A stretch of DNA of 64,000 bases from an uncultured Pseudomonadota bacterium. Its GTDB lineage: Bacteria; Pseudomonadota; Gammaproteobacteria; Natronospirales; REEB76. The DNA lies in assembly GCA_963774895.1 (NCBI GenBank), contig CAVZGN010000001.1, positions 450,419 to 514,418 on the forward strand, in the 5' to 3' direction. The position numbers and the translations under genes are program-made. This document shows positions 35,299 through 56,047 of the stretch, piece after piece (positions within the stretch are counted from its first letter, which is position 1; every line of letters begins with the position of its first letter). The notes under the pieces were generated by a model. That model saw only the letters and a program-made list of their open reading frames with translations. It was not told the origin of the DNA and ran no database searches.

Positions 35299-35341
35299 GA
35301 GATATCCTCCGCATCAAGTTGAGTAATCGTATCGTTGCTCA

Positions 35342-35702: not shown

Positions 35703-35718
35703 AGCAATTGGAATGCCA
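35703..35718 (-). promoter_or_regulatory. sigma54 (-24/-12) promoter for the P2-BON-P1 operon
   Basis: The minus strand reads TGGCAT-tccaa-TTGCT, 82 nt upstream of the P2 ATG. Confidence 0.7.
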
Positions 35719-35794
35719 ATGCGAAAAAGCAGCATTCCTCCAATGGGTTATCTCGATTTTATAAGTATGGAATTAATAAAATGCAGATGAAGGA

Positions 35795-35995: not shown

Positions 35996-36078
35996 TTCGA
36001 TTTGTATTTGTGCGTCTTTCGCACAACCGGCGTTAATAAATTATCAGTAAATGTCCCAGTTTGGCAGCGATGCAGCCT

Positions 36079-36943: not shown

Positions 36944-36990
36944 ATACGTTTATTAATCGGACATGACTCTTTGGAAATGGAGGGATGCAC

Positions 36991-37695: not shown

Positions 37696-37699
37696 CGAC

Positions 37700-38197
37700 A
37701 TGGGCATGAATGTAACCCCCGGTGCGATGTCCGAAGATACGTTATCCGGTTATCAGCCAATGGCTGAAATCAATGTGACGCCACTGGTTGACGTTATGCT
37801 GGTATTACTCATCATATTTATGATTACAGCGCCTCTTATGATGGCGCAACTGCCCATTGAACTGCCCAAAACCAGCGCGGCGGAACTAGGTAAACCGAAA
37901 CAGCCGCTGATTGTTAGTCTGGATACAAAGGGGCAGTATTATATCGATGACAAACCTACTGCATCTGTGGACTTGCCCACGCAACTCAAGACACTTGCCA
38001 ACCAGGATCCCGATCAGACTGTGTATGTACGCGCTGATAAAGCCATCCCCTACGGGCAAGTGATGGCACTGCTGGGCGAAGTAGGCCAATCCGGGTTTTA
38101 CAGGATATCCTTGATAAGCAAACGGGCGAGTGCCTCAACGAATAGCTCCGGCGCCGCATCGCCTGCTCCCTTGGCAGGCACGCAGCCGCCACGCTGA
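37700..38197 (+). CDS. exbD: biopolymer transport protein ExbD/TolR
   Basis: AEINVTPLVDVMLVLLIIFMITAP is the signature TM segment. Confidence 0.85.
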   Translation: MGMNVTPGAMSEDTLSGYQPMAEINVTPLVDVMLVLLIIFMITAPLMMAQLPIELPKTSAAELGKPKQPLIVSLDTKGQYYIDDKPTASVDLPTQLKTLANQDPDQTVYVRADKAIPYGQVMALLGEVGQSGFYRISLISKRASASTNSSGAASPAPLAGTQPPR

Positions 38198-38200
38198 ATC

Positions 38201-38827
38201 ATGCTCCAATTCAGCCACAGTCTCGGGATATCGGTCGGTATCCATATAGCAGCGGTTCTGCTCCTAATCTTGATTGCCGAATATCATTCGGCCACACCTC
38301 TGCCACCTTCCAACGCATCTTTGGCCGATGCCATCGCCGTCAACATTGTGCCACCACCGCCACCGCAATCACCTCCGCAGCCGCCACAACCACGGGTGCC
38401 ACAGCCGACGCCGCCGGTCCTACAGCCGCCCCCGCAGACTATTTCTACCGAAGCCGCTCAGGCCGATATATCAACACCACCGCCCAAGAGCATTCCAGCT
38501 CCGGCACCGCCGCCGCCCACGCAGAGTCAAACTACGCCTCTGGAAGCGACCTATGCGCAGATTGTCAGCGCCCTTCTGGAAGCAAATAAGCGCTACCCAC
38601 GCCAGGCATTGCTTGCCGGAGAACAGGGCACCGTGATCTTGTGGTTTGTGCTTAACCGTGAAGGTACGGTACTTGCGTATCGGATTGAACAGTCTTCAGG
38701 GCAACTGATATTCGATGAAGCAGTGAAACGCCTTATTCAGCGTATTCATTTTCCACCCTTTCCGAATCGCGATCTGAGCCAACGCAAGACCTTCATGGTA
38801 CCCATACAATTCGAGTTAACGGGATAA
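38201..38827 (+). CDS. tonB: energy transducer TonB
   Basis: An N-terminal TM is followed by a Pro-rich spacer (PPPPPQSPPQPPQPRVPQP). The C-terminal TonB domain reads YPRQALLAGEQGTVILWFVLNREGTV. Confidence 0.85.
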   Translation: MLQFSHSLGISVGIHIAAVLLLILIAEYHSATPLPPSNASLADAIAVNIVPPPPPQSPPQPPQPRVPQPTPPVLQPPPQTISTEAAQADISTPPPKSIPAPAPPPPTQSQTTPLEATYAQIVSALLEANKRYPRQALLAGEQGTVILWFVLNREGTVLAYRIEQSSGQLIFDEAVKRLIQRIHFPPFPNRDLSQRKTFMVPIQFELTG

Positions 38828-40530: not shown

Positions 40531-40705
40531 AATGGCAACTGTGCAAACTATGAAAGCCAGGCACCACCAGCTAGTAGCAAATAAGAAATAAACAGGCGGA
40601 TTTTGCTATAGCTCTTGGCAGAGCTCGACTACAAAGTTTCAGGGAAGGCGCGCAGAACCGCTGTATTTTGGGTGTCAATGGAAATAAGGAGTGTGTGTAG
40701 CACTT

Positions 40706-42142
40706 ATGAAAATTCTTCAGCCCAGCTCGATACGCAAACGGATCCTGTTCTCATTTTCGCTAGTCATGTTACCCCTGGTCTTTGGACTGGCAGTAGCAAT
40801 ACTCTCCATACATAATCTGGCTACACAGGGGCAAAACGCAGTTCTAAACGCCGCCGATACCGTTCAATACAGCCGCACGTTGCTGGAAGAACTACCCGAT
40901 ATGGAACGTAATGCGCTCCAGTACCGGGTACTGCAAGATCAATCGCTGTATAAGCTTTATACAGAACGGCATCAAGAATTCCAGCAGACCAGTACTGCCT
41001 TCTCACGCTTGAAGCTTAATGACACCATGCGTGAAAAACTCAACGAACTTACCACACGAGAGCAAGTCGTTTTCAATAATTTTTCGCGGTTCGATCCAAA
41101 TTCAGACGATTCCAATATGGCAGTGGATCAATTTGAGGATTTGAACAATCTGGCACGCTCCATACTCGCATTAGGCACGCAATCCATCGAAAATGAAATC
41201 AATAATATGCAGACGACTTCCAAAACCCGTCAAAGCCAACTGGCGTGGCTGGTGGCAATTCTGATACTCGCGGGTTTTTGCATGGCTGCAATATCCATCG
41301 TTCTGATCACTCGGCCAATGCGATCAATAGACCAGGCGATAAAGGGAATCGGCGCCGGAGATCTGGCCACCCCGATCGCGGTGAAAGGACCCCAGGATCT
41401 GAATGAACTTGGCAAACGCTTGGACTGGTTGCGCTCCAGGTTGCTTGATCTCGAGCAGCATCGCGTTCGCTTTCTCAGGCATATCTCACATGAACTCAAG
41501 ACACCGTTGACAAACATCCGTGAAGGTTCGCAGTTGTTGACGGATCAGATCGTGGGACCGCTTAATACTGAACAATTGGAAATTGCGCAGATTCTGCAAA
41601 AGAATGGCATGCAGTTGCAACAACGCATCGAAGATCTGCTGAATTACAGCGCCGCGCAAGGGCCTCAATTGTTCGGTGAAAACCAATTGATCAAGTTCAA
41701 TCAGGTGATTGTCAAAGTGATCGAGGACCAGAAGATGGCCATCAAGGCCAAACACATAAAAATCGATGCGCACTTGCATGAAGTCGCCATACTGGCTGAT
41801 GCGGAAAAAATTCGTATCGTAGTGGACAATCTGCTTTCCAACGCCATCAAATACTCGCCCATGGGCGGTGTAATCGGGCTGAATCTAAAGGTAGAGAATG
41901 GTCAAGCGGTTTTGAATGTGGAAGATCAAGGTCCAGGCATCAAAGCGGATGAGCGGGAGAAGGTTTTTGAAGCTTTTTATCAGGGCCAGGGCAGTGACAG
42001 CGGTTATGTAAAAGGCACCGGATTGGGTCTATCCATCGCCCGCGAATATATACGTCTGCACCAAGGTATGATTGAGATCGTCGAACGACAGCATGGAGCA
42101 GGCTTTCGGATTGCTCTACCCGCTACGGGATCAGGAGGCTGA
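40706..42142 (+). CDS. sensor histidine kinase (GlrK/QseE-like)
   Basis: Two TM segments, a HAMP-like region, the H-box FLRHISHELKTPLTNI and the ATPase motifs NAIKYSP, DQGPGI, GTGLGLSI. GTG 40691 is an alternative start. Confidence 0.8.
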   Translation: MKILQPSSIRKRILFSFSLVMLPLVFGLAVAILSIHNLATQGQNAVLNAADTVQYSRTLLEELPDMERNALQYRVLQDQSLYKLYTERHQEFQQTSTAFSRLKLNDTMREKLNELTTREQVVFNNFSRFDPNSDDSNMAVDQFEDLNNLARSILALGTQSIENEINNMQTTSKTRQSQLAWLVAILILAGFCMAAISIVLITRPMRSIDQAIKGIGAGDLATPIAVKGPQDLNELGKRLDWLRSRLLDLEQHRVRFLRHISHELKTPLTNIREGSQLLTDQIVGPLNTEQLEIAQILQKNGMQLQQRIEDLLNYSAAQGPQLFGENQLIKFNQVIVKVIEDQKMAIKAKHIKIDAHLHEVAILADAEKIRIVVDNLLSNAIKYSPMGGVIGLNLKVENGQAVLNVEDQGPGIKADEREKVFEAFYQGQGSDSGYVKGTGLGLSIAREYIRLHQGMIEIVERQHGAGFRIALPATGSGG

Positions 42143-42754
42143 ATGCGCAGGAATTTGCCTGGCCTAGTTGTATCGCTCGTCATCAGCATTATTCTGGTTT
42201 TGACGGGATGTATTCCCCGCTCCACAAAGCCGGATGTGCTTATGATCCCTGAAACAGGTGACGGCCAAATTGTCAGATTGATGGACTACGTCAACACCGT
42301 CTTGAGTCTGCCACCGGCTGCTCAGGCGGCCACGCAGGAAAACCTTAGGCAGCAATATAATCTAACGCAGTTCCCCGAAGACCGGATGCGACTTGCGCTT
42401 TTGGATGTTCTGTCGGACAGGCCGTCGCGCAATCTGGATGAGGCTGTGTCATTAGTATCTGGATATAACTGGGAAGTAGTGGGGCCGGGATTCAAGGGCT
42501 TGGCCAATCTGCTATTAAATATTGCCAGTAGTCAGCAAGCAATCGCCACAATTGACCAGTCACTCGCGCAGCAATTGGCTTCGGAGCGCTCACAAAAAGA
42601 TCATCTTCAACAACAACTGGACGCGTTGAAGAGTATCGAGAAAACCATGGATAAACGCGACAAGTCGATAGTGGCTCCACCCATCCGCAAGCTGCCGCCA
42701 GCCTCAACCAGCAACTCACAACCTCCAGCCACACCCCCTGGGGAGCAGCTTTGA
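42143..42754 (+). CDS. lipoprotein encoded between kinase and regulator (QseG/YfhG-like position)
   Basis: Lipobox LVLTGC. 203 aa. The position mirrors E. coli glrK-qseG-glrR. I cannot assert sequence similarity to QseG. Confidence 0.55.
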   Translation: MRRNLPGLVVSLVISIILVLTGCIPRSTKPDVLMIPETGDGQIVRLMDYVNTVLSLPPAAQAATQENLRQQYNLTQFPEDRMRLALLDVLSDRPSRNLDEAVSLVSGYNWEVVGPGFKGLANLLLNIASSQQAIATIDQSLAQQLASERSQKDHLQQQLDALKSIEKTMDKRDKSIVAPPIRKLPPASTSNSQPPATPPGEQL

Positions 42755-44127
42755 AAGCCACGCCCGCAAAAGCGATCTTGACTACGGGACGTATTCTGGT
42801 TGCTGACGATGACCCCGGCCTGCTGCGCCTGTTAGTCATGCGTCTGACCGCTGCGGGGCACGAGGTGCGTACGGTGGAAAGCGGCGAACAGGCCTTGGCG
42901 CAGATCCCGCTGTTCCGGCCACACGCGGTCATAACCGATATGCGCATGGCGGGTATGGATGGTATTGAGCTATTTAACAACATACGGCGCCATGATCAAT
43001 CTTTGCCAGTGATCATTCTCACCGCTCATGGCACTATTCCTGACGCCGTGGATGCCACCCATAAAGGAGTATTTGCCTATCTCACCAAACCCTTCGATAG
43101 CAAATCACTGTTGAAATGGGTGAACGATGCCTTGCGGATATCCGGCAAGCTTGAATTAAAAGATGTTGAAAACGCAGATGCTGCATGGCGTGCGGACATT
43201 ATCACACGCAGCCTGCTGATGGAGGATTTGTTGCGTCAAGCGAAGCTCGTATCTGCGGGCGATACGGCGGTTCTCATACAAGGTGAGAGTGGTACCGGCA
43301 AGGAACTATTGGCGCGTGCCATTCACAACGCCAGCCCGCGCGGCGACAAGCCGTTCATAGCCGTCAACTGTGCCGCGATCCCGGAAACCCTGCTGGAATC
43401 CGAGCTTTTCGGATACAGCAAGGGCGCATTCACCGGTGCAACCTCGGACCGGCGCGGCCTGTTTCAGGCCGCACATACCGGTACTCTATTCCTGGATGAG
43501 ATTGGCGACATGCCTTTGAGTTTCCAGGTGAAATTGTTGCGTGCGTTGCAGGAGAAAGAAATCCGGCCGGTTGGTTCGAATAATCCTATCGCAGTGGATG
43601 TACGCATTATTTCGGCCACGAACCATGACCTTGAAAAGAAGGTCTCGGAACAGGGGTTCCGCGAAGATCTATATTATCGGCTGGCAGTAGTGCCGCTGAC
43701 CATGCCACCGCTGGCAGCCCGCCGCGAAGATATTCCGCTCCTGGTTACCCATTTCCTAAGCCATGCGGGAGGAAGCAATACAAAAAGCATCAAAGGATTT
43801 GCACCCCGGGCCATGGAACTATTATTGAGTGCGCCTTGGCCGGGCAATGTGCGGCAGCTACAGAACGTAGTGGAACAAACCGTAGCACTTACCACCACCC
43901 CCCTCATACCGGAAGTCCTGGTACAAAATGCCCTGCGTGAGAAGACCGGACAAGTCACTTCCCTGGTCGAAGCGCGGGAACATTTTGAACGCGAATACCT
44001 GGTACAACTACTGCAAATCACCGAGGGCAACGTAAGTCAGGCAGCACACCTGGCGCAGCGGAATCGCACTGAATTCTACAAACTTTTACACCGTTACCAA
44101 CTTAAACCAGAGGAATTCCGATCCTGA
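42751..44127 (+). CDS. sigma54-dependent response regulator (GlrR/QseF-like, NtrC family)
   Basis: The receiver domain reads ILVADDDPGLLRLLVMRLT...PVIILTAHGTIPDAVDATHKGVFAYLTKP, close to my memory of GlrR. The AAA+ domain shows GESGTGKE and GAFTGA. A C-terminal Fis-type HTH is present. The TTG start overlaps the upstream stop. Confidence 0.85.
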   Translation: MKATPAKAILTTGRILVADDDPGLLRLLVMRLTAAGHEVRTVESGEQALAQIPLFRPHAVITDMRMAGMDGIELFNNIRRHDQSLPVIILTAHGTIPDAVDATHKGVFAYLTKPFDSKSLLKWVNDALRISGKLELKDVENADAAWRADIITRSLLMEDLLRQAKLVSAGDTAVLIQGESGTGKELLARAIHNASPRGDKPFIAVNCAAIPETLLESELFGYSKGAFTGATSDRRGLFQAAHTGTLFLDEIGDMPLSFQVKLLRALQEKEIRPVGSNNPIAVDVRIISATNHDLEKKVSEQGFREDLYYRLAVVPLTMPPLAARREDIPLLVTHFLSHAGGSNTKSIKGFAPRAMELLLSAPWPGNVRQLQNVVEQTVALTTTPLIPEVLVQNALREKTGQVTSLVEAREHFEREYLVQLLQITEGNVSQAAHLAQRNRTEFYKLLHRYQLKPEEFRS

Positions 44128-44468: not shown

Positions 44469-44923
44469 ATGACGCCGGTACGCCGCAAGCGTCTGATGGT
44501 TGTCGCCGTTATCATTGTGGGCCTGGCGACCGCCGCTACTGCCTTGGGTTTGCAGGCATTCAAGAAAAACCTGCTGTATAACTTCACACCCGCACAGGTA
44601 GCGGCCGCCGTGCGCACCTCGGCCAGCTGTTCCACATAAGTGGCCATGGCGGCCATGGGGAGTATTCTGTGCCACCCTGGCAGTATGACACCTCCAAGGT
44701 TATGCAGAAATCCAGCCCGGTGGTGTATTCTGGGATGCTATCGGACCTGTTTCGTGAAGGCCAAGGCATAGTGGTGTATGGCAAGCTGGACAAGAATGCA
44801 TTGTTCGTGGCTCAACAGGTGCTGGCCAAGCACGATGCCACCTACACGCCGCCGGAAGTGAACGCCGCCATCAAGAAAGCCGAGGTCGAGCAGCGGGCCG
44901 CGGCCGTAAAAGGTGTTACATGA
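44469..44923 (+). pseudogene. ccmE: cytochrome c maturation heme chaperone CcmE, reading frame disrupted
   Basis: ATG 44469 gives [46 protein letters not shown] and stops at TAA 44637-44639. The conserved part [23 protein letters not shown]...[14 protein letters not shown] is in another frame, ending at 44923 with an ATGA overlap with ccmF. The span is 455 nt, not a multiple of 3. Confidence 0.7.
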
Positions 44924-46926
44924 TTCCCGAACTCGGTCATCTTGCGTTGATTATTGCCCTGTGTCTGGCAGCGGCCCAAAGTTTTTTTGGTCTCGGCGGT
45001 GCGCAGCGCTCCAATCTTATCTGGATGAGCGCAGTGCGCTCGGCAGCAGTCGGACAGTCCTTGTTTGTATTGCTGGCTTTTACAGCGCTGGCTTATTCGT
45101 TTCTGATGAATGATTTCTCCGTGGCTTACGTGGCAGCCAATTCCAATACTGCCTTGCCCTGGCCTTATAAATTCACGGCGGTTTGGGGCGCGCATGAAGG
45201 TTCTCTGTTGCTGTGGGTCAGCGTGCTTGCTATATGGACCCTGGCGGTCGCGCGCTTCAGCCGTCATCTGCCACAGGATTTTTCCAGCCGCGTTCTGGGC
45301 GTGCTCGGCGTGATCAGCATCGGATTCTTGCTGTTCATGCTGACCACCTCTGATCCGTTTGGACGGCTGTTGCCGCCTGCGCAACAGGGCGCAGACCTGA
45401 ATCCCGTACTCCAGGATCCCGGCATGGCGATCCATCCGCCGATGCTGTACATGGGCTATGTTGGGATGTCGGTGGCCTTCGCCTTTGCGGTAGCCGCATT
45501 GCTCAGCGGCCGCATGGATGTCATGTGGGCCCGCTGGTCGCGGCCCTGGACCCTGGTGGCCTGGCTGTTTCTGACCTGTGGAATCACGTTCGGCAGCTGG
45601 TGGTCCTATTACGTGCTGGGCTGGGGCGGGTTCTGGTTCTGGGACCCAGTGGAAAACGCGTCGTTTATGCCGTGGCTGGTTGGAACGGCGCTGGTGCATT
45701 CGCTGGCAGTAACTGAAAAACGCGGCGCCTTTAAAAGCTGGACCGCTTTGCTGGCTATCACGGCGTTTTCTCTGAGCCTGCTCGGCACCTTTCTGGTGCG
45801 TTCCGGGATCTTGATTTCGGTGCACGCCTTCGCTAGCGATCCTAAGCGCGGTATTTTTATATTGGCCATGCTCGGTTTATTTATCGGTGTCGCGCTCACT
45901 TTGTATGCCTGGCGCGCTCCCATGTTCAGCCAGCGTGGCGGGGGATTCAAAATATTTTCCCGTGAGACTTTCCTGCTGCTCAACAATGTCTTTCTGGTGG
46001 TGGCCGCAGCTGCGGTTCTGCTCGGCACGCTGTACCCGCTGGTGCTGGGAGCGCTCGGGCTTGGCCAGATTTCAGTCGGTCCACCGTACTTTGACCATAT
46101 ATTCGTACCTCTAATGGTGCCATTTTTCATTCTGGCGGGCATAGGTCCGTATGTACGCTGGAAACACGGCAATATCTCTGAAACACTTGCAAAATTGCGG
46201 GTGCCGGCAGCATTGGCATTGCTGGCGGGCGTGGTGGTGATCGTGCTGCTGCGGGCTGAGGCCAGTTTCATTGCTACGGCCGGTGTGCTGCTGGCGGCCT
46301 GGATGATCTTCAGCGCATTGCAGGAACCCGTGCAGCGTATGTGGCAGCGGCTGCATCATGGGCATGCCAGCTTGGCACACAGCATTCTCGGCATGAGCGT
46401 CGCACATTTTGGAGCTGGTCTCATGATTCTCGGCGTAACCGTAAACTCCATGCTGGGGATTACCGTGGACCAGGTGATGAAACCGGGTACCAGCGTCGAA
46501 GTGCACGGTTATAAGTATTCATTTCAAGGCGTACGGGATGTATCCGGCCCCAATTATCAGGCGGTCCAGGGTACCGTGGCGGTGACCCGTGGCGGAAAAA
46601 TACTCACGCTGATTCACCCGGAAAAGCGCCAGTTCGATACTGGTGGCATGACTACCACCGAAGCGGCCATTGCTCCGGGACCATTCCGGGATCTGTACGT
46701 GGCGCTCGGCAACCCGCTGGGGCAGGATGCCTGGAGCGTGCGTATTGAATATAAACCTCTGGTCAGGTTCATCTGGCTGGGCGGGCTGACCATGATGTTG
46801 GGCGGAATCATCGCGCTTATGGATAAGCGCTACCGGCGTACCCGGGTGCCAGTCGCAATCGACGCGAGCACCCCACCCAAGGATGCTGACGCGAATCTGC
46901 CTAAATCTCCTGCAACGGAACGCTGA
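44920..46926 (+). CDS. ccmF: cytochrome c-type biogenesis protein CcmF (heme lyase)
   Basis: 668 aa and polytopic. [11 protein letters not shown] and [19 protein letters not shown] form the WWD-type domain. Confidence 0.9.
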
Positions 46927-47468
46927 TGCGCCGTCGATTGATTTTCATTCTGCCGATGGCGGTGCTGATTGCACTCATTGGGTTCTTTTGGCGCGGTCTG
47001 TATCTCAATCCAACCATCGTGTCGTCACCGCTGATCGGCAAGCCGGTGCCGGATTTCAGCTTGTCGCGTTTGCATGATCCGAAACAGACATTCGATCAGA
47101 ACCAGCTCAAGGGTCAGGTGTCCCTGGTCAATGTCTGGGCCACCTGGTGCGTGGCCTGCCGTGATGAGCAGCAGACGCTGGTCGAATTCTCCAAGCAGAA
47201 TGTCGTGCCGATTTATGGGTTCGATTACAAAGATGACCGGCAGAGCGCCATTCAATGGCTCGCTGAACGCGGCAATCCTTATACCGCGGTGGTTTTCGAT
47301 CCGACCGGTAACGTGGCCATCAACTGGGGAATTTATGGAGCACCAGAGACCTTCTTGATTGATTCGCATGGCATCATCCGTTTCAAATATATCGGCCCTA
47401 TCACCCCCGATGTGATCCAGAAGGAATTGCTGCCTCGTATCCAGGCATTAAACCGCGAGCATACATGA
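46926..47468 (+). CDS. ccmG: thiol:disulfide oxidoreductase CcmG/DsbE
   Basis: VNVWATWCVACRDE is a thioredoxin CxxC, GVYGAPETFLID-like motifs are present, and there is an N-terminal anchor. Confidence 0.9.
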   Translation: MRRRLIFILPMAVLIALIGFFWRGLYLNPTIVSSPLIGKPVPDFSLSRLHDPKQTFDQNQLKGQVSLVNVWATWCVACRDEQQTLVEFSKQNVVPIYGFDYKDDRQSAIQWLAERGNPYTAVVFDPTGNVAINWGIYGAPETFLIDSHGIIRFKYIGPITPDVIQKELLPRIQALNREHT

Positions 47469-47881
47469 GATCCTGGATCCTGATTGTGGGCTGCATGATG
47501 TTGATGGTGTCCCACCTGGCGTGGGGGATCGATAGCGAACCGGCATTCACTGACCCCGTATTTGAGCACCGCTATGAACGTTTACTCCAGGAAATCCGCT
47601 GTTTGCAATGCATGAATGAAAACATTGCCAACTCCGATGCGCCGCTGGCCGTTGATTTCCGCCGCCAAATCCACGCGAAAGTTGCAGAGGGTCAAAGCGA
47701 GCAGCAGATCCTACAGTACATGGTCAATCGCTACGGGGATTTTATCCTTTACGATCCCCCGCTGCAGGCCAACACCTGGCTATTGTGGATGGGACCCTTC
47801 TTGTTGTTGGGTATCGCGTTGATCGTGGTGATTATGATAGTGCGGCGGCGGGCCAACATGGATGACGGGCGGGAGTCATAA
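47465..47881 (+). CDS. ccmH: cytochrome c-type biogenesis protein CcmH
   Basis: IRCLQCMNENIANSDAPLAVDFR matches the LRCxxC motif, and a C-terminal TM is present. Confidence 0.85.
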   Translation: MRSWILIVGCMMLMVSHLAWGIDSEPAFTDPVFEHRYERLLQEIRCLQCMNENIANSDAPLAVDFRRQIHAKVAEGQSEQQILQYMVNRYGDFILYDPPLQANTWLLWMGPFLLLGIALIVVIMIVRRRANMDDGRES

Positions 47882-47883
47882 GC

Positions 47884-49080
47884 ATGCTGTTTATTGCAAT
47901 TGCAGCTGTCATGCTCTGCGTCGCAGCCGCGTGCGTGGCGGTACCGCTGTGGCGGCACCGTTCGCCCGACGCTCCCTCCTATGAAACCGCCTATCGGTCC
48001 GCACATTTAAACCAAGTGGATGAACTGGCGAGGGATCTGGCGGCCGGCCGGCTCGCAACAGCCGATCATGTGGCGGCGCGCCGGGATCTGGAACGTGAGC
48101 TGGCTTTAAGCCTTAAAGCCGGTGATGTTGGAACGCATCAATACAGGTCGCCAGGACCGGGTAACCACATATTGGCGATCGCTGCCGGAGTGATTTTGTT
48201 AATCGCCATGGCCATTGGCTACTGGCAGTTGGGGAATTGGCGGGTGGCGGTTGAAGGTGTCACAGCCGCAAGTGCTTACAATATCGAGCAGATGGCGGCA
48301 GAACTATCCCATAAGCTTAACACCACTGAACCAAACAATTTGGAGGGCTGGCTGATGTTAGGACGTGCCTATGCGCTCATGGATCGATATAACGATGCAG
48401 TCCAGGCCTTTGGAAAGGCGAATAAATTATCAGGTGATGCCAATCCGGACATTCTGGCGGCTTATGCTGAAGCGATCTCGCTTGCGAATCCGGACCAATT
48501 CATGCAAAAAGCGGCGCCATTGTTCGAGCAAGTCCTGAAAATTGACCCGAACAATGAACAAGGATTATGGTACGGTGGGCTTGCTGCTTCAATACGTGGC
48601 GATAATAAGCTGGCGGTGCAGCGCTGGCAAACGCTACTTGGAGAGAATCTATCCCCACAATATCAAAAGCAGGTAATTCAGTATATTGAAGAAGCTGGCG
48701 GTCAGGCGATCGCAGCGCCTCCCATAACTGCGACAGCAATCCATATTTATCTGACGCTGGATCCAGCGTTGCTAAACAAGGTTAGCCCTGATGCAACTGT
48801 GTTTGTGTTTGCAGAATCATTGCAGCAATCTGGTGGACCACCGCTAGCCGTGCGTCGGCTTCAGGTACGCGATTTGCCGCTTGATGTAACTCTTAGCGAT
48901 GCTGACTCCATGGTGGCGGGCAGGACTTTGCAGGGTTTTCCTAAAGTCAAAGTAATTGCCCGCATTGCAATAAACGGGAATCCATTGCTCAGTCATGGGG
49001 ATTTTGAGGGTAGCGCCGTGTGGAATCGTAGCGCCAGCGATAAACTACTTGATATCGATATTAAAACCAAAGTCCCGTGA
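47884..49080 (+). CDS. ccmI: c-type cytochrome biogenesis protein CcmI (CycH), TPR
   Basis: An N-terminal TM pair, then TPR-like repeats (GWLMLGRAYALMDRYNDAVQAFGKA). It occupies the position after ccmH. Confidence 0.75.
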   Translation: MLFIAIAAVMLCVAAACVAVPLWRHRSPDAPSYETAYRSAHLNQVDELARDLAAGRLATADHVAARRDLERELALSLKAGDVGTHQYRSPGPGNHILAIAAGVILLIAMAIGYWQLGNWRVAVEGVTAASAYNIEQMAAELSHKLNTTEPNNLEGWLMLGRAYALMDRYNDAVQAFGKANKLSGDANPDILAAYAEAISLANPDQFMQKAAPLFEQVLKIDPNNEQGLWYGGLAASIRGDNKLAVQRWQTLLGENLSPQYQKQVIQYIEEAGGQAIAAPPITATAIHIYLTLDPALLNKVSPDATVFVFAESLQQSGGPPLAVRRLQVRDLPLDVTLSDADSMVAGRTLQGFPKVKVIARIAINGNPLLSHGDFEGSAVWNRSASDKLLDIDIKTKVP

Positions 49081-49138
49081 GCACTGTAATAAAGCTGTGC
49101 TAGTTTCAACGCCAATTGCAGAGTTCCTTTTTAATCTT

Positions 49139-50116
49139 TCAATGGGCAGCGCATATGTAATAGATGCTCGCAAGCGGCTCTCCGGTTCCAATGGCCTTTA
49201 TCTGTTGAGCAGCCTGCATCGCCAGGGGAGTACCACGAGCTCCAATTGCCGTTTGCACAAAATGTAATGCGGCACTTGTCCGTGTCTGACGAGAAAGGCC
49301 AGTGTCAATATCATCAGATGAAAGATAGGTATTGTCATTGACATTAGAAAATTCGGCTAAGCCAAACCAATCTTCAAATGCAACTGCGACCACGAAGTTT
49401 ATCCATGGATTTCTTGGGTCATCGGGGTGAGCACGAATATATTGTTCACCGAGCCGGATCATGGTGTGCAGCTCCTGATTTCCCTGCGCACAATTAAATG
49501 CATTTTTCAGATCCAATAAGAATGCATCTTTGCCCCACGTAGTATCTGGATATTCCTGCCATAGACTATGCAATATTTTTTCATAATCGATGGATCCCTT
49601 TGTAGGTGTGTTCTTAAATGCGATTCCATATCGTTCTAGTGTGGCACGAGCAGATTGCCATGTAGGGTCAGTTATATCCGCATTGTTGAGTCTAGCGGCT
49701 AGCCGCACCGATGCCAGCAATAGAATGGGTTTACTAACGGTAGGCGCACTTTCAGCTTTGCTCGAAACCTGAAGAAGCAGGCTGGTAAGTTGCCGTTGGT
49801 TGGCCCGTATCTCAGCGGCGGCGGTTAGAGAAGTGTAAGACAGTACGCTCTTTGCAAGCGCGGCCTGAATTCCGGGGAATTCGCTGTCTAGCTGTAGTCC
49901 CAGCTGGCGATCCACATATTGGTCGAAGCCGTCATCATCTTTGCTGGTTAAGAACCCTAAGCCATCCCGGCCGTCATATTGAATATCTACGGAGGTCATC
50001 GGACTAATGGGTACTGATTCTGAGCTTGAGCCTGCAGCTGCCAGTGCGGGCCTAGCCAAGATGAGTAAGGTTTCTATAGTGATGTAAATTTTCATGAGCT
50101 GCATATGAAAGGCCAT
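49139..50116 (-). CDS. hypothetical secreted protein, low-GC, no recognised family
   Basis: 360-aa track ORF. The probable start is at one of the Met codons 50116/50104/50095, before the hydrophobic segment IYITIETLLILARPALAAAG. Confidence 0.5.
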   Translation of the reverse strand: MAFHMQLMKIYITIETLLILARPALAAAGSSSESVPISPMTSVDIQYDGRDGLGFLTSKDDDGFDQYVDRQLGLQLDSEFPGIQAALAKSVLSYTSLTAAAEIRANQRQLTSLLLQVSSKAESAPTVSKPILLLASVRLAARLNNADITDPTWQSARATLERYGIAFKNTPTKGSIDYEKILHSLWQEYPDTTWGKDAFLLDLKNAFNCAQGNQELHTMIRLGEQYIRAHPDDPRNPWINFVVAVAFEDWFGLAEFSNVNDNTYLSSDDIDTGLSRQTRTSAALHFVQTAIGARGTPLAMQAAQQIKAIGTGEPLASIYYICAAH

Positions 50117-50242
50117 GCGATGTCTTCTAGGAAGATTTGCTGTAGATTTAGGGTTTATTGAAGAATGGATGCTGAAATCAAAATCATTTAGCATTAAAGA
50201 AATCTCATCATGCCTATGCATTTAAAATGCTAGCGTAAATTT

Positions 50243-51175
50243 TCAATGCATATTTTGCTTAACTATGCTTTGGCAATTATTATGCCTGAACAGGCTGGGT
50301 GGGATACCCACACTCTGTCTAAAAACGCTGGTAAAGTGGCTTTGCGAAGAAAAGCCACAACGCTCGCTGATATGGCTCATTGATAAAAATGTATCCGTGA
50401 GCAGTTGTTTTGCAAGTGCAATCCGACAACTGAGGATGTATTGATGTGGCGATGTTCCGAAAGTTGCCCGAAATTGCTTGATGAAATAGAAATTACTCAA
50501 TTTTGCGATTTGGGCAAGTTTACTGAGTTGCAGGTTTTTATGGAGGTTCTCTTGTATGAATACGGCCACGTGGCCAAGATCGGGTGTTTTTAGCTTCGGT
50601 GACCTATAGGATCCTAGTGAATCAATTCCATTGTTTCCATAAGCCTCAGCAAGGTGGAGCACCAGGAAGGTTGCCAGAGAATCCAAATAGGCGATACTGA
50701 CCCGTTTTGTATTTCCAGATATGAGCCTGGCAATTTCATGGGCAATTTGCGCCACGATGGGATCTCTCAAGCCCATATTGGCTAAGTTCAATAGCTTTGA
50801 ACTATGCAAGTCATGTTTTGTAGCGAGATCGCACACGAAAGTATGCGATAGCCGCATTTGCAGAACTTCTACGAACCCATCCCATTTGCAATAAACGGAT
50901 TCTCCTGCCGGACTGAAACTTACGGTATCCAAACCTAATTGAACAACCGACACCTCACCGCGCAAATGGCGTTCAAACCGAACACTTCGAGTGGAGAAAA
51001 ATACGCTGATCCACAGATCGGGGTTTGCTGGAAGCGCAACTTCTCCAGCTGGAAGGTTATAAAATAAGGCACGCAAGGCACTCCACTGGGGAAATGCCTC
51101 GGTACTCGAATAAGTGGCCGGCCTTGGCATACAAGCATCCAGGTCCTCCGAGGCCTGGATTGCCACGTCATACAT
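50243..51175 (-). CDS. AraC-family transcriptional regulator
   Basis: The C-terminal double HTH reads LSKLAQIAKLSNFYFIKQFRATFGTSPHQY...ISERCGFSSQSHFTSVFRQSVGIPPSLF. Confidence 0.85.
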   Translation of the reverse strand: MYDVAIQASEDLDACMPRPATYSSTEAFPQWSALRALFYNLPAGEVALPANPDLWISVFFSTRSVRFERHLRGEVSVVQLGLDTVSFSPAGESVYCKWDGFVEVLQMRLSHTFVCDLATKHDLHSSKLLNLANMGLRDPIVAQIAHEIARLISGNTKRVSIAYLDSLATFLVLHLAEAYGNNGIDSLGSYRSPKLKTPDLGHVAVFIQENLHKNLQLSKLAQIAKLSNFYFIKQFRATFGTSPHQYILSCRIALAKQLLTDTFLSMSHISERCGFSSQSHFTSVFRQSVGIPPSLFRHNNCQSIVKQNMH

Positions 51176-51463
51176 GCTGCTCCGCCCCTCACTAGATGCG
51201 TCTGTTTATAGGAGCTTGTGTCTATTTGGCAACTTATAGGCCAATGGCCAGATGGCGTCAAGTCATATTTAGGCGGCCGTTGATACCGGACATTAGACGA
51301 ACTTTGGGCGGAGGTGTCGTATATATACGTCACCACAATAGCAAGAAAATGACATGGCAATAGCAATATTTTGACAGTATTTACGCCAATTCTTGCCAAA
51401 CTTAAATCCCTAACGCGGAAGTCCAGCGTTCCTCTAAACCGATTTTCGAGTGGAGGCCTGACG

Positions 51464-51931
51464 ATGAAAATGTCCCGAACGACCTTTATAAGTCTCGTGA
51501 TAATCGCTGTAGTTGGTTTCTTGGCCGGTATCCCGGCATGGGCCGGTGATCCTTCGGATAATCAACCTGATCAATCCCAGGTAATGGGCATGGCGACGCA
51601 GTTGTGGAATGGCCCGACGCAGTTCCAGATGCACTGTTCCGGATGCCACGGATACTGGGGGCAGGGCATCACCATATATGGCCCACCCCTGAAAGGCGAT
51701 GCTTTCGTAATGCATGCCAGCGTCGACCTCATTGCTCAGACCATCGAGCAGGGCAGGCAGGGTGCCTTCAAGCACTTTCGCGCTTACTCCGGTATGCCTA
51801 GATTCAACCAGCTGTCGGTCGGGGAAATTTACTCGATCATCGATTACCTGAAAAACGGACTGCAGAGCGCGACTGAAGAGTCAGGACTTTCTGCAAACCG
51901 CACCGCCATTCCGTCAGGCGATCCTCCGTGA
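51464..51931 (+). CDS. periplasmic monoheme c-type cytochrome
   Basis: A ggagg SD precedes ATG 51464, and a signal peptide is present. One CSGCH site, with the distal Met in SGMPRF. It is paralogous to 53560..53928. Confidence 0.8.
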   Translation: MKMSRTTFISLVIIAVVGFLAGIPAWAGDPSDNQPDQSQVMGMATQLWNGPTQFQMHCSGCHGYWGQGITIYGPPLKGDAFVMHASVDLIAQTIEQGRQGAFKHFRAYSGMPRFNQLSVGEIYSIIDYLKNGLQSATEESGLSANRTAIPSGDPP

Positions 51932-51986
51932 GGATCACGGATACGAGATTCACTGGGTATAGCAACTTCTTCTGGGGAACTAAACC

Positions 51987-53420
51987 ATGAAACATTTACA
52001 AGAGTTACTTATCCGACTGGGCCTGACGGCGATAGGCGTGTTGACGTTGAGCGTGCTCACCGTCGGCGCGGTGCAGGCCATGCCGTCATTCTCACGCCAG
52101 ACCGGCATGAGCTGCAACCAATGCCATTTCACCCATGACCCAACGCCGAGCTTCACCATCCAAGCCATGAAGTTCCGCGCCAACGGGTACCGGTTTGCGG
52201 AACGCAGGACCAAGCTGCTGGCCGGCCAGCCGGGCGCGGAGGGCGGCGAGACGCTCGATATTCCATGGGATGACTATCTGTCTTACCGCTTCGAAAGCGT
52301 TGTCGCCAACAAATCCCAGGCGCCGGGCCAGGCTTCCACCGAACTCACTTCCAATCCGACCACCCGTCTCGCGTGGTTCGTGACCGGTCCGGTGACCAAG
52401 AACATCGGCTTCTGGAACGAGTTCTATATCGTCGGCGACTACGGCGCCAACAATTGCAGCCCGTCGACTGCGTGTACCGGGGGCAGTACCTGGGCGCCGG
52501 GTCTGGTTACTTGGGATGAATATGATCTGGTCTATACCATCAATCCCGATGCGATCCAGGACAATGGCGATATCTATAACATCCGCTTCACCAACCAGGG
52601 TCTCGATGAAGAGCCTTGGGGTCCTAATCAGATTGGCGCACCCTCCGCGATCGGCCCGCGCGGCGAACTCGATGGCAATGCGCATCCGAACCTCGGCGCC
52701 TTCCGCTTTACTGCCTGGATGCATGACCGCTGGGTCTGGCAACTCGGAGCGTGGACCGGTGATAACAACAGCGGCTGGGATCAGAAGATGGAAGATGGTG
52801 ACATCGAATATTACTTCGATAACCGCAGCGACAACACGGTGGCAGCAAGGATACAGGCGCAGACGGGTGATGATGAAATTCCGTATGTCACCACTGATGC
52901 CCTCCAGGAAGGTGCCAACCAGAATCCGCTGGTATACACCTACCATGACGCCATCACCGGCATTTCGGCGACGCGGGCGTGCGATTGCGCTTACCTGAAT
53001 ACCGATCTGAAGAACAACGTCGCCGTCGACCCAACTTTCCGCTGGCAGCGGTCGGACGTCGGGGATGACGGCGATATAAGCTGGGCCTGGGCGATCGGGC
53101 TGGCCTATGGCAGAGATGAGTACACCGATGGTGCCAGCTTCACGGAGGAACTCTTCGGAACCGGGCTCATCTGGTGCTACGCGCATACGCACTGCTTGCA
53201 GCCGACCTTCTCACACACCCTGAAGTACACATTCACCGACCACAACAATGTGTCGTACGACGTCCCCGAGCCTAATTCGTACTCTCTGAGCTACGTCTAT
53301 CAACCGGCCATGAACTTCGCGGTTGTTGTCTCGCTCTCGACCTCATCGACCACATCGCTGACCGGGCCGGCTAAAACGGGTGGGTGGAGCTTCTCGACAA
53401 CCCTTGACTTCCCAATGTAA
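51987..53420 (+). CDS. Cyc2-like fused monoheme cytochrome-porin (candidate outer-membrane Fe(II) oxidase)
   Basis: The signal peptide (...GAVQA|MP) is followed by the single heme site SFSRQTGMSCNQCH (C43-H47). The remaining ~430 aa are rich in G/Y/W/T/N/D with alternating patterns, consistent with a beta-barrel. Size and layout fit Cyc2. Confidence 0.55.
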   Translation: MKHLQELLIRLGLTAIGVLTLSVLTVGAVQAMPSFSRQTGMSCNQCHFTHDPTPSFTIQAMKFRANGYRFAERRTKLLAGQPGAEGGETLDIPWDDYLSYRFESVVANKSQAPGQASTELTSNPTTRLAWFVTGPVTKNIGFWNEFYIVGDYGANNCSPSTACTGGSTWAPGLVTWDEYDLVYTINPDAIQDNGDIYNIRFTNQGLDEEPWGPNQIGAPSAIGPRGELDGNAHPNLGAFRFTAWMHDRWVWQLGAWTGDNNSGWDQKMEDGDIEYYFDNRSDNTVAARIQAQTGDDEIPYVTTDALQEGANQNPLVYTYHDAITGISATRACDCAYLNTDLKNNVAVDPTFRWQRSDVGDDGDISWAWAIGLAYGRDEYTDGASFTEELFGTGLIWCYAHTHCLQPTFSHTLKYTFTDHNNVSYDVPEPNSYSLSYVYQPAMNFAVVVSLSTSSTTSLTGPAKTGGWSFSTTLDFPM

Positions 53421-53436
53421 CCCGTAGAAATCATCT

Positions 53437-53474
53437 GGAGGGTCGGGAAATATTCCCGACCCTCCATTTTTTTT
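53437..53474 (+). terminator. rho-independent terminator after the cyc2-like gene
   Basis: ggagggtcggg-aaatatt-cccgaccctcc followed by a T8 tract. Confidence 0.8.
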
Positions 53475-53559
53475 GCTATGATGATGTATAGGCTCACACT
53501 GCGGAAGTTAGAGATTTAAAACTCCATAATTTTTAGATAATTGTGGGAGAACCATTCTC

Positions 53560-53928
53560 ATGAACAAAAGCAACTTGATTAAAGCACTGGCCTGCGCTGT
53601 TACTGCAGCAGGACTTATCGGATTCAGTAGCGCCGATGCAGCCGATGACGACTCAGCCGGCGCCAAAATATTCCAGACCCAGGACTGCACCGGCTGCCAT
53701 GGCCCAAAAGGAGAGGGTATCGAAGGTCTGGCACCGCCGCTCAAGGGCAGCAACTTCGTGATGACGGCCAGCGAAGCGGATGTTGCACACACCATCAAGT
53801 ATGGACGTAGCGGATCGGAGAAGCATTTCAAGGACATCCAACAGGACATGCCGGCGCATCCCACTCTCAGTGATCAGCAACTTCAGGAACTTGTTCAGTA
53901 TCTGAAGAACGGCTTGCAGAAAGGATAA
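53560..53928 (+). CDS. periplasmic monoheme c-type cytochrome
   Basis: A signal peptide is present. One CTGCH site, with the distal Met in QDMPAH. The shared C-terminal YLKNGLQ is also found in 51464..51931. Confidence 0.8.
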   Translation: MNKSNLIKALACAVTAAGLIGFSSADAADDDSAGAKIFQTQDCTGCHGPKGEGIEGLAPPLKGSNFVMTASEADVAHTIKYGRSGSEKHFKDIQQDMPAHPTLSDQQLQELVQYLKNGLQKG

Positions 53929-54055
53929 CAGGCAAGTGGCTGTTTTTTAGAACCAGAGCCCGGTGTAACGGCTGTACAGGCAAGGTTGGCGTTAACGTAA
54001 CTCCAGCCTGTATCGTGATTCACCCGCATCACAATGTGAATTGAGACAAAGCAAG

Positions 54056-54820
54056 ATGTATCAGTGCCGGCTCATTGTCTGTATGACTATGATCAGCTTA
54101 TTGCTGATTGCCTGTGCGACAGCCAACGAACCGCCGCCCATCGGTTCCGAACCTACCGGCCCTACCACTTATCCCGTTACTGTGAGCGCAACGACGCTGA
54201 AATTTCTCAGCTCACCACAAGATCAAACACAAAATGGACTTGAAATAAGCCTGCATGCCTTGGATACCGTACCGCAGCTTTACTATCGCTACCAGATGGC
54301 TTCCAAGGTCAATGGAACTTACCTCGTGTTTATGATAAAACCACCAAAACTGTATTCGGTTTATCGTGTTCCATTTTATAAAAATGATCCCGACCGGGTC
54401 ATCGTCAAAGTCGAATTGACAAATCATTCAGCCCAAATCCTGGATACCGCTAATGCCGTGTGCGCGTTCGAGCTGGATGGACAAACTGTGGTGACACAGC
54501 CGCTCAAGGCGGGTGACTTACTGCCGGACCAAACGAAGGTTGTACCCGTTCAAGGACCAAGTCTGGAACAGCTCAAGGGACATGAAGAACTGGCCGTATG
54601 GATTTTTCAGCCCAGCTCGGCAAATGCGGCACTGAGCAAAACTCCTTTCAAATGGACCCTTCATTACACTTTGACAGTCGAAACCGAGGCTGCAAATGCA
54701 ATATTGGTGGCTCAGTCGCCGTACGAATCAGGGGTCAGTAATTATGCGGGACGGATTGAACCGGCCAATTCTGATACCACATCAACATCAGATACTGCGA
54801 AACCACCCCCAATCCGGTAA
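54056..54820 (+). CDS. hypothetical lipoprotein
   Basis: The lipobox-like motif LLLIAC lies near the N-terminus. I recognise no family. Confidence 0.5.
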   Translation: MYQCRLIVCMTMISLLLIACATANEPPPIGSEPTGPTTYPVTVSATTLKFLSSPQDQTQNGLEISLHALDTVPQLYYRYQMASKVNGTYLVFMIKPPKLYSVYRVPFYKNDPDRVIVKVELTNHSAQILDTANAVCAFELDGQTVVTQPLKAGDLLPDQTKVVPVQGPSLEQLKGHEELAVWIFQPSSANAALSKTPFKWTLHYTLTVETEAANAILVAQSPYESGVSNYAGRIEPANSDTTSTSDTAKPPPIR

Positions 54821-55184
54821 CCCGGTGCCGAAAGAATGCCTGATCCTGTAAAACAGGATTATCAGGGCCTGAACCGCCAACGGGCCGAAATTGCGGTAAA
54901 GAAAAATGCAATTCAGAGCTTGCTGAAGTTTCGTTAATTGTGAAAATATGCGCGTCCTTGGTAATGCTTATAGCTGCGAAAGACATCTTTTATCCACGAA
55001 AAACCTGCAAGCAGTGCGAACATCAATTAATAGCCTTTAGTGTAATTGGCTTATTTATTATTGCTTTTATTACAGCGACTGCTGTATTTTGCTTGAGGTA
55101 AATTATTGTGCACATTCAGCATCAGATATCAGCAGTATCTGATGGCGCTGGCTTTCGTAGAAACTGAACGATTAGGTCATTCCG

Positions 55185-55949
55185 CTAGCGCTTCGGCCGT
55201 GCCAGCGAGTCTGCCACCACCCAGGCGACGCCGATCAGGGCGAGAGTGGTAGCGCTCTCAGTCCAGTTCTCATGACTCCCGGGTGCGACCAGCAGCATAG
55301 GCACCCACACCAGCAGGGCGAAGGACACATACATGGCGGTCAGCAGAATCGCACCGAGGCGCGCCCACACGCCCGTGAGTATTGCCAAGCCTGCCGCCAT
55401 GTGGCCGACCCCGGTCGCATAGCCCCAGAAAACTTGCGAAGGCGGCAGCCATTTGGGAACCACCGGGGCGGTCAGGTTCATATAGACAAAATGCGCACCG
55501 CCGAATAGCAGCGCACAAACTCCGAATGCCAGTTGGCCGACGCGCGTGAGGCGCGCGGCCAGGGTCGCATCGATTTTCGCGTAGTTGGCGTAGACGATCA
55601 GCGCACCTGCTGCGATCGCGACCTGCTCGGCGAGGCTTTCGTAGGTATAGTATTTATCGTAATGGGCGAGCACCACGCGGCCGTTCATCAGGATGACGAC
55701 GATGAGCGTGTAGTAGGCGGTGAGTGCAGCGGCGCCCCAGGCTGCGGTCCGGCGCCATTCGACGGCCGCGCCCGCGACCAGCATGAACACCGCGGCGGCG
55801 TAGGCGAGCGTGGTGCGGTCGGGAAAGTTCTTGGGCACCGGCTGCCCTGGATCGAAGTTCCCGTACACCAGACAGAGAATGGCCAATGCCATCACGCCCA
55901 GGCCGTAGACGTGCCAGCCAAAGACCATCGACCTTTTTTCTGTAGTCAT
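55185..55949 (-). CDS. polytopic inner-membrane protein (DoxX-like), unknown function
   Basis: 254 aa with about 8 hydrophobic helices. High GC with consistent codon bias. Confidence 0.6.
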   Translation of the reverse strand: MTTEKRSMVFGWHVYGLGVMALAILCLVYGNFDPGQPVPKNFPDRTTLAYAAAVFMLVAGAAVEWRRTAAWGAAALTAYYTLIVVILMNGRVVLAHYDKYYTYESLAEQVAIAAGALIVYANYAKIDATLAARLTRVGQLAFGVCALLFGGAHFVYMNLTAPVVPKWLPPSQVFWGYATGVGHMAAGLAILTGVWARLGAILLTAMYVSFALLVWVPMLLVAPGSHENWTESATTLALIGVAWVVADSLARPKR

Positions 55950-56047
55950 GTTTTTTTACCTTCGATTGCGAACGCCCGACTGGGGCGATGATTGCGCTAA
56001 ACAATAGCATGCCGCCATTTTCTCAGCGGAGTCTTGCCTCCAGCGGC

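Follow-up and report, generated by a model that had tools for sequence, protein, structure and literature searches.

A conserved cassette around a Cyc2-like cytochrome-porin, a possible extracellular electron-uptake module in an uncultured gammaproteobacterium

Gene content of the cassette

We analyzed a 64-kb stretch of DNA from an uncultured gammaproteobacterium (64,000 nucleotides of contig CAVZGN010000001.1, here called the window), focusing on a gene cassette whose central gene encodes a protein of 477 amino acids (aa). An original prediction, made from the letters of the window, had described this protein as a Cyc2-like cytochrome fused to a porin, flanked by two paralogous soluble monoheme cytochromes, and had proposed that the three form an extracellular Fe(II)-oxidation module. 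All of the predicted open reading frames (ORFs) are found at their expected positions, and the same three proteins (155, 477, and 122 aa) are called independently on a metagenome contig of identical sequence. The cassette also comprises a divergent regulator gene, a terminator, and a fourth conserved gene, encoding a lipoprotein, which was absent from the earlier reading (Table 1). Our results support the interpretation of the 477-aa protein as a Cyc2-like cytochrome-porin in a possible extracellular electron-uptake module, for which Fe(II) is the donor that we infer.

Table 1. Features of the cassette and its surroundings in the window
Feature	Position	Strand	Basis
ccmF-ccmG-ccmH-ccmI, System I cytochrome c maturation	44920..49080	+	Pfam
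AraC/XylS-family regulator, divergent	50243..51175	-	Pfam HTH_18, HTH_AraC
Tandem 19-nt direct repeat, AraC-cytA intergenic	51336..51376	+	Candidate regulator binding site
cytA, periplasmic monoheme class I cytochrome c, 155 aa	51464..51931	+	Pfam PF00034, PF13442
Cyc2-like fused monoheme cytochrome-porin, 477 aa	51987..53420	+	Motif, profile homology, AlphaFold2 barrel
Intrinsic terminator or attenuator, between porin gene and cytB	53436..53474	+	Stem and T-run, conserved
cytB, second periplasmic monoheme class I cytochrome c, 122 aa	53560..53928	+	Pfam PF00034
Lipoprotein, 254 aa from ATG at 54056, lipobox LLIAC	54056..54820	+	Synteny; no Pfam family

A single heme motif ahead of a predicted beta barrel

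Cyc2 has been defined by a signal peptide, a single CXXCH, the motif AXPXFAR[Q/K][T/Y], a downstream PXL, a length of at least 365 residues, and a 16-strand porin of the OprO/OprP type; the AXPXFAR[Q/K][T/Y] motif has been described as present only in Cyc2 (Keffer et al. 2021). PXL is expected about 4 residues downstream of CXXCH (Keffer 2021; McAllister 2020; FeGenie). As Cyc2 references, we used 13 FeGenie-called sequences, each cut at 400 residues (Garber et al. 2020, supplementary output), a set without the rus-operon Cyc2 of Acidithiobacillus ferrooxidans, the PV-1 Cyc2, and Cyt572. Additional named references came from a plasmid collection (Ralstonia, Caballeronia, and A. ferrooxidans-plasmid proteins).

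The 477-aa protein, which exceeds the Cyc2 minimum of 365-375 aa, begins with a signal peptide spanning residues 1-31 (MKHLQELLIRLGLTAIGVLTLSVLTVGAVQA/MPSF, with the slash at the cleavage site), recognizable by inspection from its positive n-region, hydrophobic core, and A-x-A site. Its sole CxxCH is CNQCH at residues 43-47 (52113-52127), twelve residues past the cleavage site between VQA and M, as had been predicted. The heme motif is preceded by AMPSFSRQT (residues 31-39) and GMS. This stretch agrees with the Cyc2 signature at 8 of 9 positions, the strict pattern being broken by a change from A to S, and the 3-residue gap between signature and CXXCH is the same in all references. The "A" of FAR is also variable in proteins accepted by FeGenie (FSRQH in Geobacter bemidjiensis, FERQT, FGRKY), and FARQT is present in other members of the clade described below. 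Downstream of the heme, the protein departs from the Cyc2 definition: in place of PXL it has PSF at residues 54-56, at +6 from His47. A proline followed by any residue and a hydrophobic one is found at +6 or +7 in 26 of the 27 clade members matching the motif pattern (PxF in 25 of 27), whereas canonical-motif proteins have PxL at +3 to +5 (154 of 155), as do all of the FeGenie references (13/13).

A homolog search gave just 23 clusters of homologs. Across the alignment of these 23 sequences, which reach down to 26% identity, F35, R37, Q38, T39, C43, Q45, C46, H47, F56, K62, F63, G67, and Y68 are invariant, and the C-terminal residue is hydrophobic or aromatic. An ordinary porin with a fortuitous N-terminal CxxCH and unrelated cytochrome neighbors could be suspected, since the 477-aa protein has no match among Pfam or NCBIfam models. 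Yet conservation across homologs excludes a coincidental heme motif: the motif and eight surrounding residues are invariant in all 23, and exactly one CxxCH is present in 107 of 112 full-length relatives. With a cytochrome gene next to the porin gene in 26 of 27 loci as well (see below), we give this explanation practically no weight.

The barrel-like composition noted from the sequence has a counterpart in the predicted structure. Modeled with AlphaFold2 from the family alignment (mean predicted local distance difference test score [pLDDT], 76.5; predicted template modeling score, 0.76), the protein has short helices near the heme motif, followed by about 16 long beta strands between residues 98 and 476 and one short hairpin, as counted with DSSP. 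The best Foldseek matches in the Protein Data Bank (PDB) are the 16-strand porins Omp32, OmpT, PorB, and OprO (4RJW), with E values of 4e-8 to 1e-7; OprO has the highest query template modeling score among them (0.48). OprO 4RJW is also the structural homolog given for Cyc2 of strain PV-1 (Keffer et al. 2021). The barrel check that had been named beforehand thus returned a porin-type fold, and the 477-aa protein is confidently predicted to be an outer-membrane barrel of about 16 strands with one fused heme.

A separate clade within the Cyc2 superfamily

An exhaustive profile search retrieved 2,005 representatives at E <= 1e-3, 41 of them at E <= 1e-30. The remaining representatives are mostly 420-490 aa long, match over the N-terminal 150-240 profile positions, and have the consensus AVPSFARQTG..C.ACHT.FP.LT.FGR.FKLNGYT. 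Aligning the clade of the 477-aa protein with 40 canonical-motif proteins by hhalign gave a probability of 99.9% (E 6e-32) over 387 columns, covering both the cytochrome and the barrel. Together with the N-terminal motif, this whole-length match bears out the proposed relatedness to Cyc2. The relationship is a distant one in pairwise comparisons, BLASTP of the 477-aa protein against canonical proteins giving 37-57 bits.

Profile scores place the protein apart from the canonical types. A hidden Markov model (HMM) of 155 canonical-motif sequences scores the named plasmid proteins at 402-512 bits and the 477-aa protein at 51.7 bits, in a match confined to residues 10-143; in reverse, the clade HMM gives 632 bits for the 477-aa protein against 28-46 for the named proteins. 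The HMMs for the published clusters 1-3 were small surrogates built from the FeGenie-called references rather than FeGenie's own models. They score the 477-aa protein at 34.4 (cluster 1), 33.4 (cluster 2), and 54.8 bits (cluster 3), the score coming from residues ~10-145. The HMM of 155 canonical-motif sequences, which is of the cluster 2 type, gives 298-460 bits for cluster 2 references, 89-126 for cluster 1, 40-93 for cluster 3, and 52 for the 477-aa protein, and the clade and cluster HMMs cross-score with the FeGenie-called references at 26-58 bits, with one exception (12.1 bits). The surrogate scores of 33-55 bits fall within the genuine cross-cluster range. They are numerically above the calibrated FeGenie cut-offs of 31.5 (cluster 1), 27.8 (cluster 2), and 27.3 bits (cluster 3); for comparison, the three Cyc2 copies of Sideroxydans lithotrophicus ES-1 reach 120-141 bits on their own cluster model (Garber et al. 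2020). The 477-aa protein would probably be picked up by FeGenie at a low score, with "cluster 3" as the likeliest label.

We constructed neighbor-joining (NJ) distance trees in which clade member P0086 was counted inside the clade for the bootstrap values reported here. The 43-member clade is monophyletic relative to cluster-2-type proteins in 100 of 100 replicates, and in 50 of 50 on barrel columns alone. When the 13 FeGenie references and the Ralstonia, Caballeronia, and A. ferrooxidans-plasmid proteins are included, the clade remains separate in 53 of 60 bootstraps, and the 477-aa protein is not placed within published cluster 1, 2, or 3. The mean distance from the clade to each cluster is 3.1-3.6, compared with 2.5-2.8 among clusters 1-3. 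On these sequence comparisons, we assign the protein to the Cyc2 superfamily, in a separate deep clade. Since the tree method is crude and the reference sample small, the clade may nest at the edge of a published cluster.

A tblastn screen of 72,556 plasmids gave no match to the 477-aa protein. With the canonical protein P0100 as the query, the same screen recovered full-length relatives on Ralstonia, Caballeronia, and Acidiphilium plasmids and on an A. ferrooxidans plasmid. The last of these, CP084173.1 of strain YQ-N3 (L037), carries a Cyc2-type gene annotated as hypothetical, with the motif variant FAAQT, adjoining a transposase gene and a monoheme cytochrome gene. Its match to P0100 has the same statistics as those of the Acidiphilium plasmid genes (NC_009469.1, NC_015179.1), namely, 25.7% identity, 123 bits, and the same coordinates, which suggests one gene common to Acidithiobacillus and Acidiphilium plasmids. 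A plasmid-borne Cyc2-type gene fits horizontal spread of the module.

Partner cytochromes and conserved gene neighborhoods

CytA has a signal peptide, CSGCH at residues 58-62, and an MP axial-Met motif, and its gene is preceded by a GGAGG ribosome-binding site; CytB has CTGCH at residues 43-47. CytA matches PF00034 (8.5e-9, 37.1 bits) and PF13442 (3.5e-7, 30.9 bits), as does CytB (PF00034, 3.4e-13, 51.1 bits; PF13442, 43.2 bits), all above the curated gathering scores of 21.3 bits for PF00034 (Cytochrom_C) and 27 bits for PF13442 (Cytochrome_CBB3). The two proteins share 48% identity across 79 residues (E 1e-22) with the MP motif aligned in both, and their alignment includes the PPLKG, FVM, KHF, MP, and YLKNGLQ residues from which they had been taken for paralogs. 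The nearest solved relatives of CytB are CcoP-type and alcohol dehydrogenase cytochrome domains. The original prediction also likened these neighbors to Cyc1. That soluble cytochromes adjoin the porin gene is correct; CytA and CytB have one CXXCH each, so neither has the two hemes of Cyc1.

We compared loci carrying clade or canonical-type genes (L002-L037), among which 27 distinct clade loci were counted. In 26 of the 27, from two phyla, a small cytochrome c gene lies directly 5' of the porin gene on the same strand. The encoded protein is a monoheme cytochrome of 125-175 aa in 23 loci and a 294-aa diheme protein in 3, the C-terminal domain of the latter being a CytA homolog. Homologs of CytA with 38-66% identity occupy this position in 16 other distinct loci, and Gemmatimonadales loci have a small ORF with a heme motif at the cytA position.

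Further partners define four sub-clades. Sub-clade A (the window, the Usitatibacter metagenome-assembled genome [MAG] L002/L009, L003, and L008) has the order cytA, porin, terminator, cytB, lipoprotein, with cytB orthologs at the equivalent position in L002/L009, L003, and L008. In sub-clade B (L004, L010, and L016), ccoN, a ccoO fusion, and fixS lie directly 5' of the cytochrome and porin genes; these three are the loci where cbb3 genes adjoin. Sub-clade C consists of 8 gammaproteobacterial loci with cytA, the porin gene, and, directly 3' of it, a gene for a high-potential iron-sulfur protein (HiPIP). Sub-clade D, from Gemmatimonadales, has a YceI-like gene, a monoheme cytochrome gene, the porin gene, and sometimes a gene for a 219-aa protein. 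The clade combines its architecture and homology with synteny to soluble high-potential carriers and oxidase genes.

Genes for System I cytochrome c maturation recur as well. In the window, they are supported by Pfam matches to CcmF_C (7e-113), Redoxin, CcmH (4e-45), and CycH domains. In L003, the AraC gene and cassette sit inserted between ccmE and ccmF, and in L008 the cassette lies directly 5' of ccmF, with the region further upstream cut by the contig end. In L007, L014, L017, L018, L022, L025, and L030, ccm genes lie at most 10 kb from the cassette. The recurrence of partner cytochromes, HiPIP, cbb3 oxidase, AraC, and ccm genes around clade members strengthens the case for a module. Around canonical Cyc2 genes, other parts are arranged on a like principle: in L034, L035, and Caballeronia, a diheme c4-like cytochrome gene lies directly downstream of cyc2, with a HiPIP gene upstream in Caballeronia. 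The published order is cyc2-cyc1, Cyc1 being diheme.

These neighborhoods bear on the direction of electron flow. The protein could instead work outward, passing electrons of the periplasmic cytochromes to an acceptor outside the cell, for example, Fe(III) in soluble or chelated form: FeGenie labels cluster 3 Cyc2, which occurs in Geobacter and Rhodoferax, as "possible iron reduction," electron transfer through a single heme is intrinsically reversible, and a survey of Gemmatimonadota could not determine the direction. However, the recurrent partners, HiPIP and cbb3 oxidase genes, stand for high-potential components of the sort usual where electrons flow to oxygen, and no multiheme cytochromes or CymA-like quinol dehydrogenases are present at the examined loci. 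We therefore regard outward transfer as improbable and favor inward flow.

Regulation and the conserved lipoprotein

The divergent gene had been proposed to encode an AraC regulator. The C-terminal 100 residues of its product match HTH_18 (3e-20, 72.8 bits) and HTH_AraC (1e-17, 64.3 bits); the N-terminal ~195 residues match no family in Pfam. An ortholog with 38% identity over its full length occupies an equally divergent position in L003, a partial one is found in L008, and AraC-family genes lie 3' of the porin gene in L005 and L006. The AraC-family protein is likely the regulator of the cassette. The intergenic direct repeat consists of the copies CAATAGCAAGAAAATGACA and CAATAGCAATATTTTGACA with 22-bp spacing, the second of which ends in TTGACA, 88 bp before the cytA start. 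Neither L003 nor L008 shows clear conservation of the repeat, which is for this reason only a lead as an operator; these two loci have another motif, GCAATAAT..GCAA, in common.

The strong terminator predicted after the porin gene is present as a 14-bp stem with 9 G-C pairs (53436-53466) followed by T8, the only strong terminator-like site of the region. An equivalent hairpin and T-run, with compensatory stem changes, lies 3' of the porin gene in the three other loci of sub-clade A (L002, L003, and L008). No Rfam family matches within window positions 49000-56000.

Homologs of the lipoprotein are encoded directly 3' of cytB in L002/L009 (53% identity; 9866-10693 in L002), L003 (35%; 5923-6480), and L008 (35%; 3264-3998). 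The family amounts to six 90% clusters in 5.8 billion proteins. In a confident AlphaFold2 model (pLDDT 77), the chain is all-beta and forms two sandwich-like domains. The protein belongs to no Pfam family, and the model has no PDB match at E <= 1e-3; for these reasons, we propose no function for it.

Distribution of the clade

We screened GTDB with one genome per species. Members of the clade occur only in metagenome-assembled genomes. Many of the hosts are Gemmatimonadales; others belong to the Woeseiaceae, Usitatibacter, Aquisalimonadaceae, Pseudomonadales, and unclassified Gammaproteobacteria. In this screen, the nearest relative is 65% identical. Cyc2 homologs have been reported earlier in Woeseiaceae and Gemmatimonadota, with neither the sub-type nor the direction of electron transfer resolved.

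Some Gemmatimonadales MAGs have two copies of the clade gene. The Gemmatimonadales MAG locus L028 shows a second cytochrome gene and porin-gene start a few kilobases downstream (positions 12990-13388 and 15317-15439), and the pairs L029/L030 and L031/L033 are each two contigs of one MAG with a porin N terminus on each. The Usitatibacter-type genomes of L035 and L036 (where P0202 is named "cytochrome C [Usitatibacter sp.]") have a canonical cluster-2-type cyc2 and a downstream diheme cytochrome gene, so both Cyc2 types may coexist in one lineage. There, the canonical cyc2 adjoins an isc operon and an NtrB/NtrC-like pair resembling window positions 40691-44127.

The hosts are without known lithotrophy, which would fit a non-energetic role, such as detoxification of Fe(II) at the surface or redox-gated uptake of iron or another solute, in which the cytochromes only reoxidize the heme. 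Control by a one-component AraC sensor, common in stress and uptake systems, and the periplasmic YceI-like gene alongside the porin gene in Gemmatimonadales point the same way. Mechanistically, however, this would be the same reaction as electron uptake, differing only in its physiological payoff, and the linkage to cbb3 oxidase suggests that the electrons are used. A purely protective or uptake function thus seems to us a slim prospect.

Proposed function

We consider it probable, if by no means certain, that the cassette brings extracellular electrons inward through the Cyc2-like cytochrome-porin to periplasmic carriers, with Fe2+ as the most probable donor. What we infer from the arrangement of the parts is which way the electrons flow, which donor supplies them, and how the cassette is regulated. 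A soluble extracellular reductant, most probably Fe2+, would enter the pore and reduce the heme, held in a region of ~40 residues that follows the signal-peptide cleavage site and is fused to the porin barrel. The electron would then go to the periplasmic CytA, presumably cotranscribed, and to CytB, or to HiPIP in other lineages, and these carriers would pass it to a high-affinity terminal oxidase of the cbb3 type or to a bc1 complex. Attachment of the three hemes may fall to the neighboring System I ccm genes. The cassette would be turned on by the divergent AraC-type regulator, and the conserved terminator past the porin gene could set a lower level of cytB and lipoprotein expression.

Fe(II) is the most likely donor because all three Cyc2 homologs tested biochemically oxidize Fe(II) (Keffer et al. 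2021). The HiPIP PioC belongs to the Pio Fe(II)-oxidation operon. Several observations weigh against electron uptake from Fe(II) by this cassette. The 64-kb window contains no oxidase, bc1, or carbon fixation genes, and the clade members of the GTDB screen include none from a culture or from a known iron oxidizer. In a published survey, Gemmatimonadota Cyc2 homologs were called ambiguous in direction. Moreover, the heme surroundings are unlike those of every cluster 1-3 reference (CNQCH with its invariant Gln, and PxF at +6/7 versus PxL at +3-5); since the heme environment differs, so could the redox potential and the substrate.

The same architecture with inward flow might accordingly serve a donor other than Fe(II), such as Mn(II), reduced humics or quinones, a cathode or other solid surface, or a reduced species of sulfur or iodine. 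The heme pocket particular to the clade (CNQCH, longer spacer, PxF) suggests another potential or route of access, the hosts live in soil and sediment as heterotrophs or sulfur oxidizers (Gemmatimonadales, Woeseiaceae), and the AraC regulator has an uncharacterized N-terminal sensor domain. In one proteomic study, Woeseiaceae Cyc2-like proteins cluster with that of the cathode-oxidizing Tenderia. A narrow 16-strand pore with a single heme is, however, better suited to a small soluble ion, and the Cyc2 homologs tested so far all oxidize Fe(II), so that we hold a different donor to be unlikely, although less so than outward transfer. A related conjecture, to which we give slightly more room, is that the clade is a fourth, functionally distinct cytochrome-porin cluster, whose altered heme pocket and dedicated monoheme or HiPIP partners would suit it to another redox window or to a donor that is not aqueous Fe(II).

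Cyc2 is the main marker gene for inferring microbial iron oxidation from genomes and metagenomes, and its homologs are increasingly reported in lineages without known iron metabolism, where their meaning is disputed. A coherent, syntenically conserved sub-family probably contributes to the Cyc2 calls in Gemmatimonadota, Woeseiaceae, and their relatives. If the clade is indeed such a fourth cluster, abundant uncultured heterotrophs of soil and sediment (Gemmatimonadales, Woeseiaceae, and Usitatibacteraceae) would have an unrecognized, AraC-regulated form of extracellular electron uptake. The recognizable signature and the defined partner genes make the cassette a tractable test of distant Cyc2-like function. 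What the analysis adds to prior knowledge is a separate clade with its own signature, the partner sets conserved around it, and a fourth gene, with no new principle; overall, it is a well-supported annotation of moderate added value.

Other features of the window

The window also contains iron-related genes unlinked to the cassette, namely, a VIT1-family iron or manganese transporter gene (1340-2380) and an ExbB/(ExbD)/TonB cluster (36985-38827). An IS30-like insertion element is present in two direct copies (13415-14682 and 23122-24385), 9,704 bp apart, each with a 389-aa HTH_38 and rve transposase and terminal inverted repeats of 43-46 nt; the copies are 100% identical over at least 300 nt. 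Between the copies lie genes of the Ada/AlkA, DUF3466-like, and PAS-GGDEF-EAL types, one of each, and for this reason the whole may form a composite transposon. A tRNA-Thr(CGT) gene (33675-33750) is followed by the lowest GC content of the window (0.42 at 34-36 kb versus about 0.55), and the stretch 33675-36000 could be a small tRNA-integrated island.

Comparison with known systems

The barrel fold is shared with OprO/OprP and other 16-strand porins (Omp32, PorB, OmpT, and OmpF), which have no heme domain and no detectable sequence similarity to the 477-aa protein. Like PioAB-PioC and MtoAB, the cassette would combine an outer-membrane barrel with heme to hand on electrons of extracellular Fe(II) to a soluble carrier in the periplasm, and the HiPIP gene 3' of the porin gene in 8 clade loci recalls PioC. 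The parts differ: MtoAB, PioAB, and MtrAB use a separate decaheme cytochrome within a 26-strand barrel, whereas the clade has one heme attached covalently within a barrel of ~16 strands, and the cassette ORFs include no multiheme cytochrome.

With Cyc1 of A. ferrooxidans and Zetaproteobacteria, a periplasmic diheme c4 cytochrome, CytA and CytB share the position of a soluble cytochrome beside a cytochrome-porin gene and the presumed role of electron acceptor. They are proteins of 122-155 aa with one heme, whereas Cyc1 has about 200 aa and two hemes, and the conserved cytochrome gene of the clade lies upstream of the porin gene, in contrast to the Cyc1 gene, downstream of cyc2.

The closest known counterparts are the Cyc2 proteins themselves. 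Cluster 1 includes those of Sideroxydans and Mariprofundus; cluster 2, those of Acidithiobacillus ferrooxidans, Rhodoferax, and Dechloromonas; and cluster 3, Leptospirillum Cyt572 and the proteins of Geobacter and Nitrospira. In common with all three, the 477-aa protein has a signal peptide, a single N-terminal CXXCH that follows A-x-P-x-F-x-R-Q-T after a 3-residue gap, an F-[KR]-x-x-G-Y stretch past the heme, a length in the range of 420-490 aa, a hydrophobic C-terminal residue, a predicted OprO-like barrel of ~16 strands, and neighboring genes for soluble periplasmic carriers. It differs in its heme motif, CNQCH as opposed to the cluster 2 consensus C-x-A-C-H, and in belonging to a clade confined to uncultured lineages.

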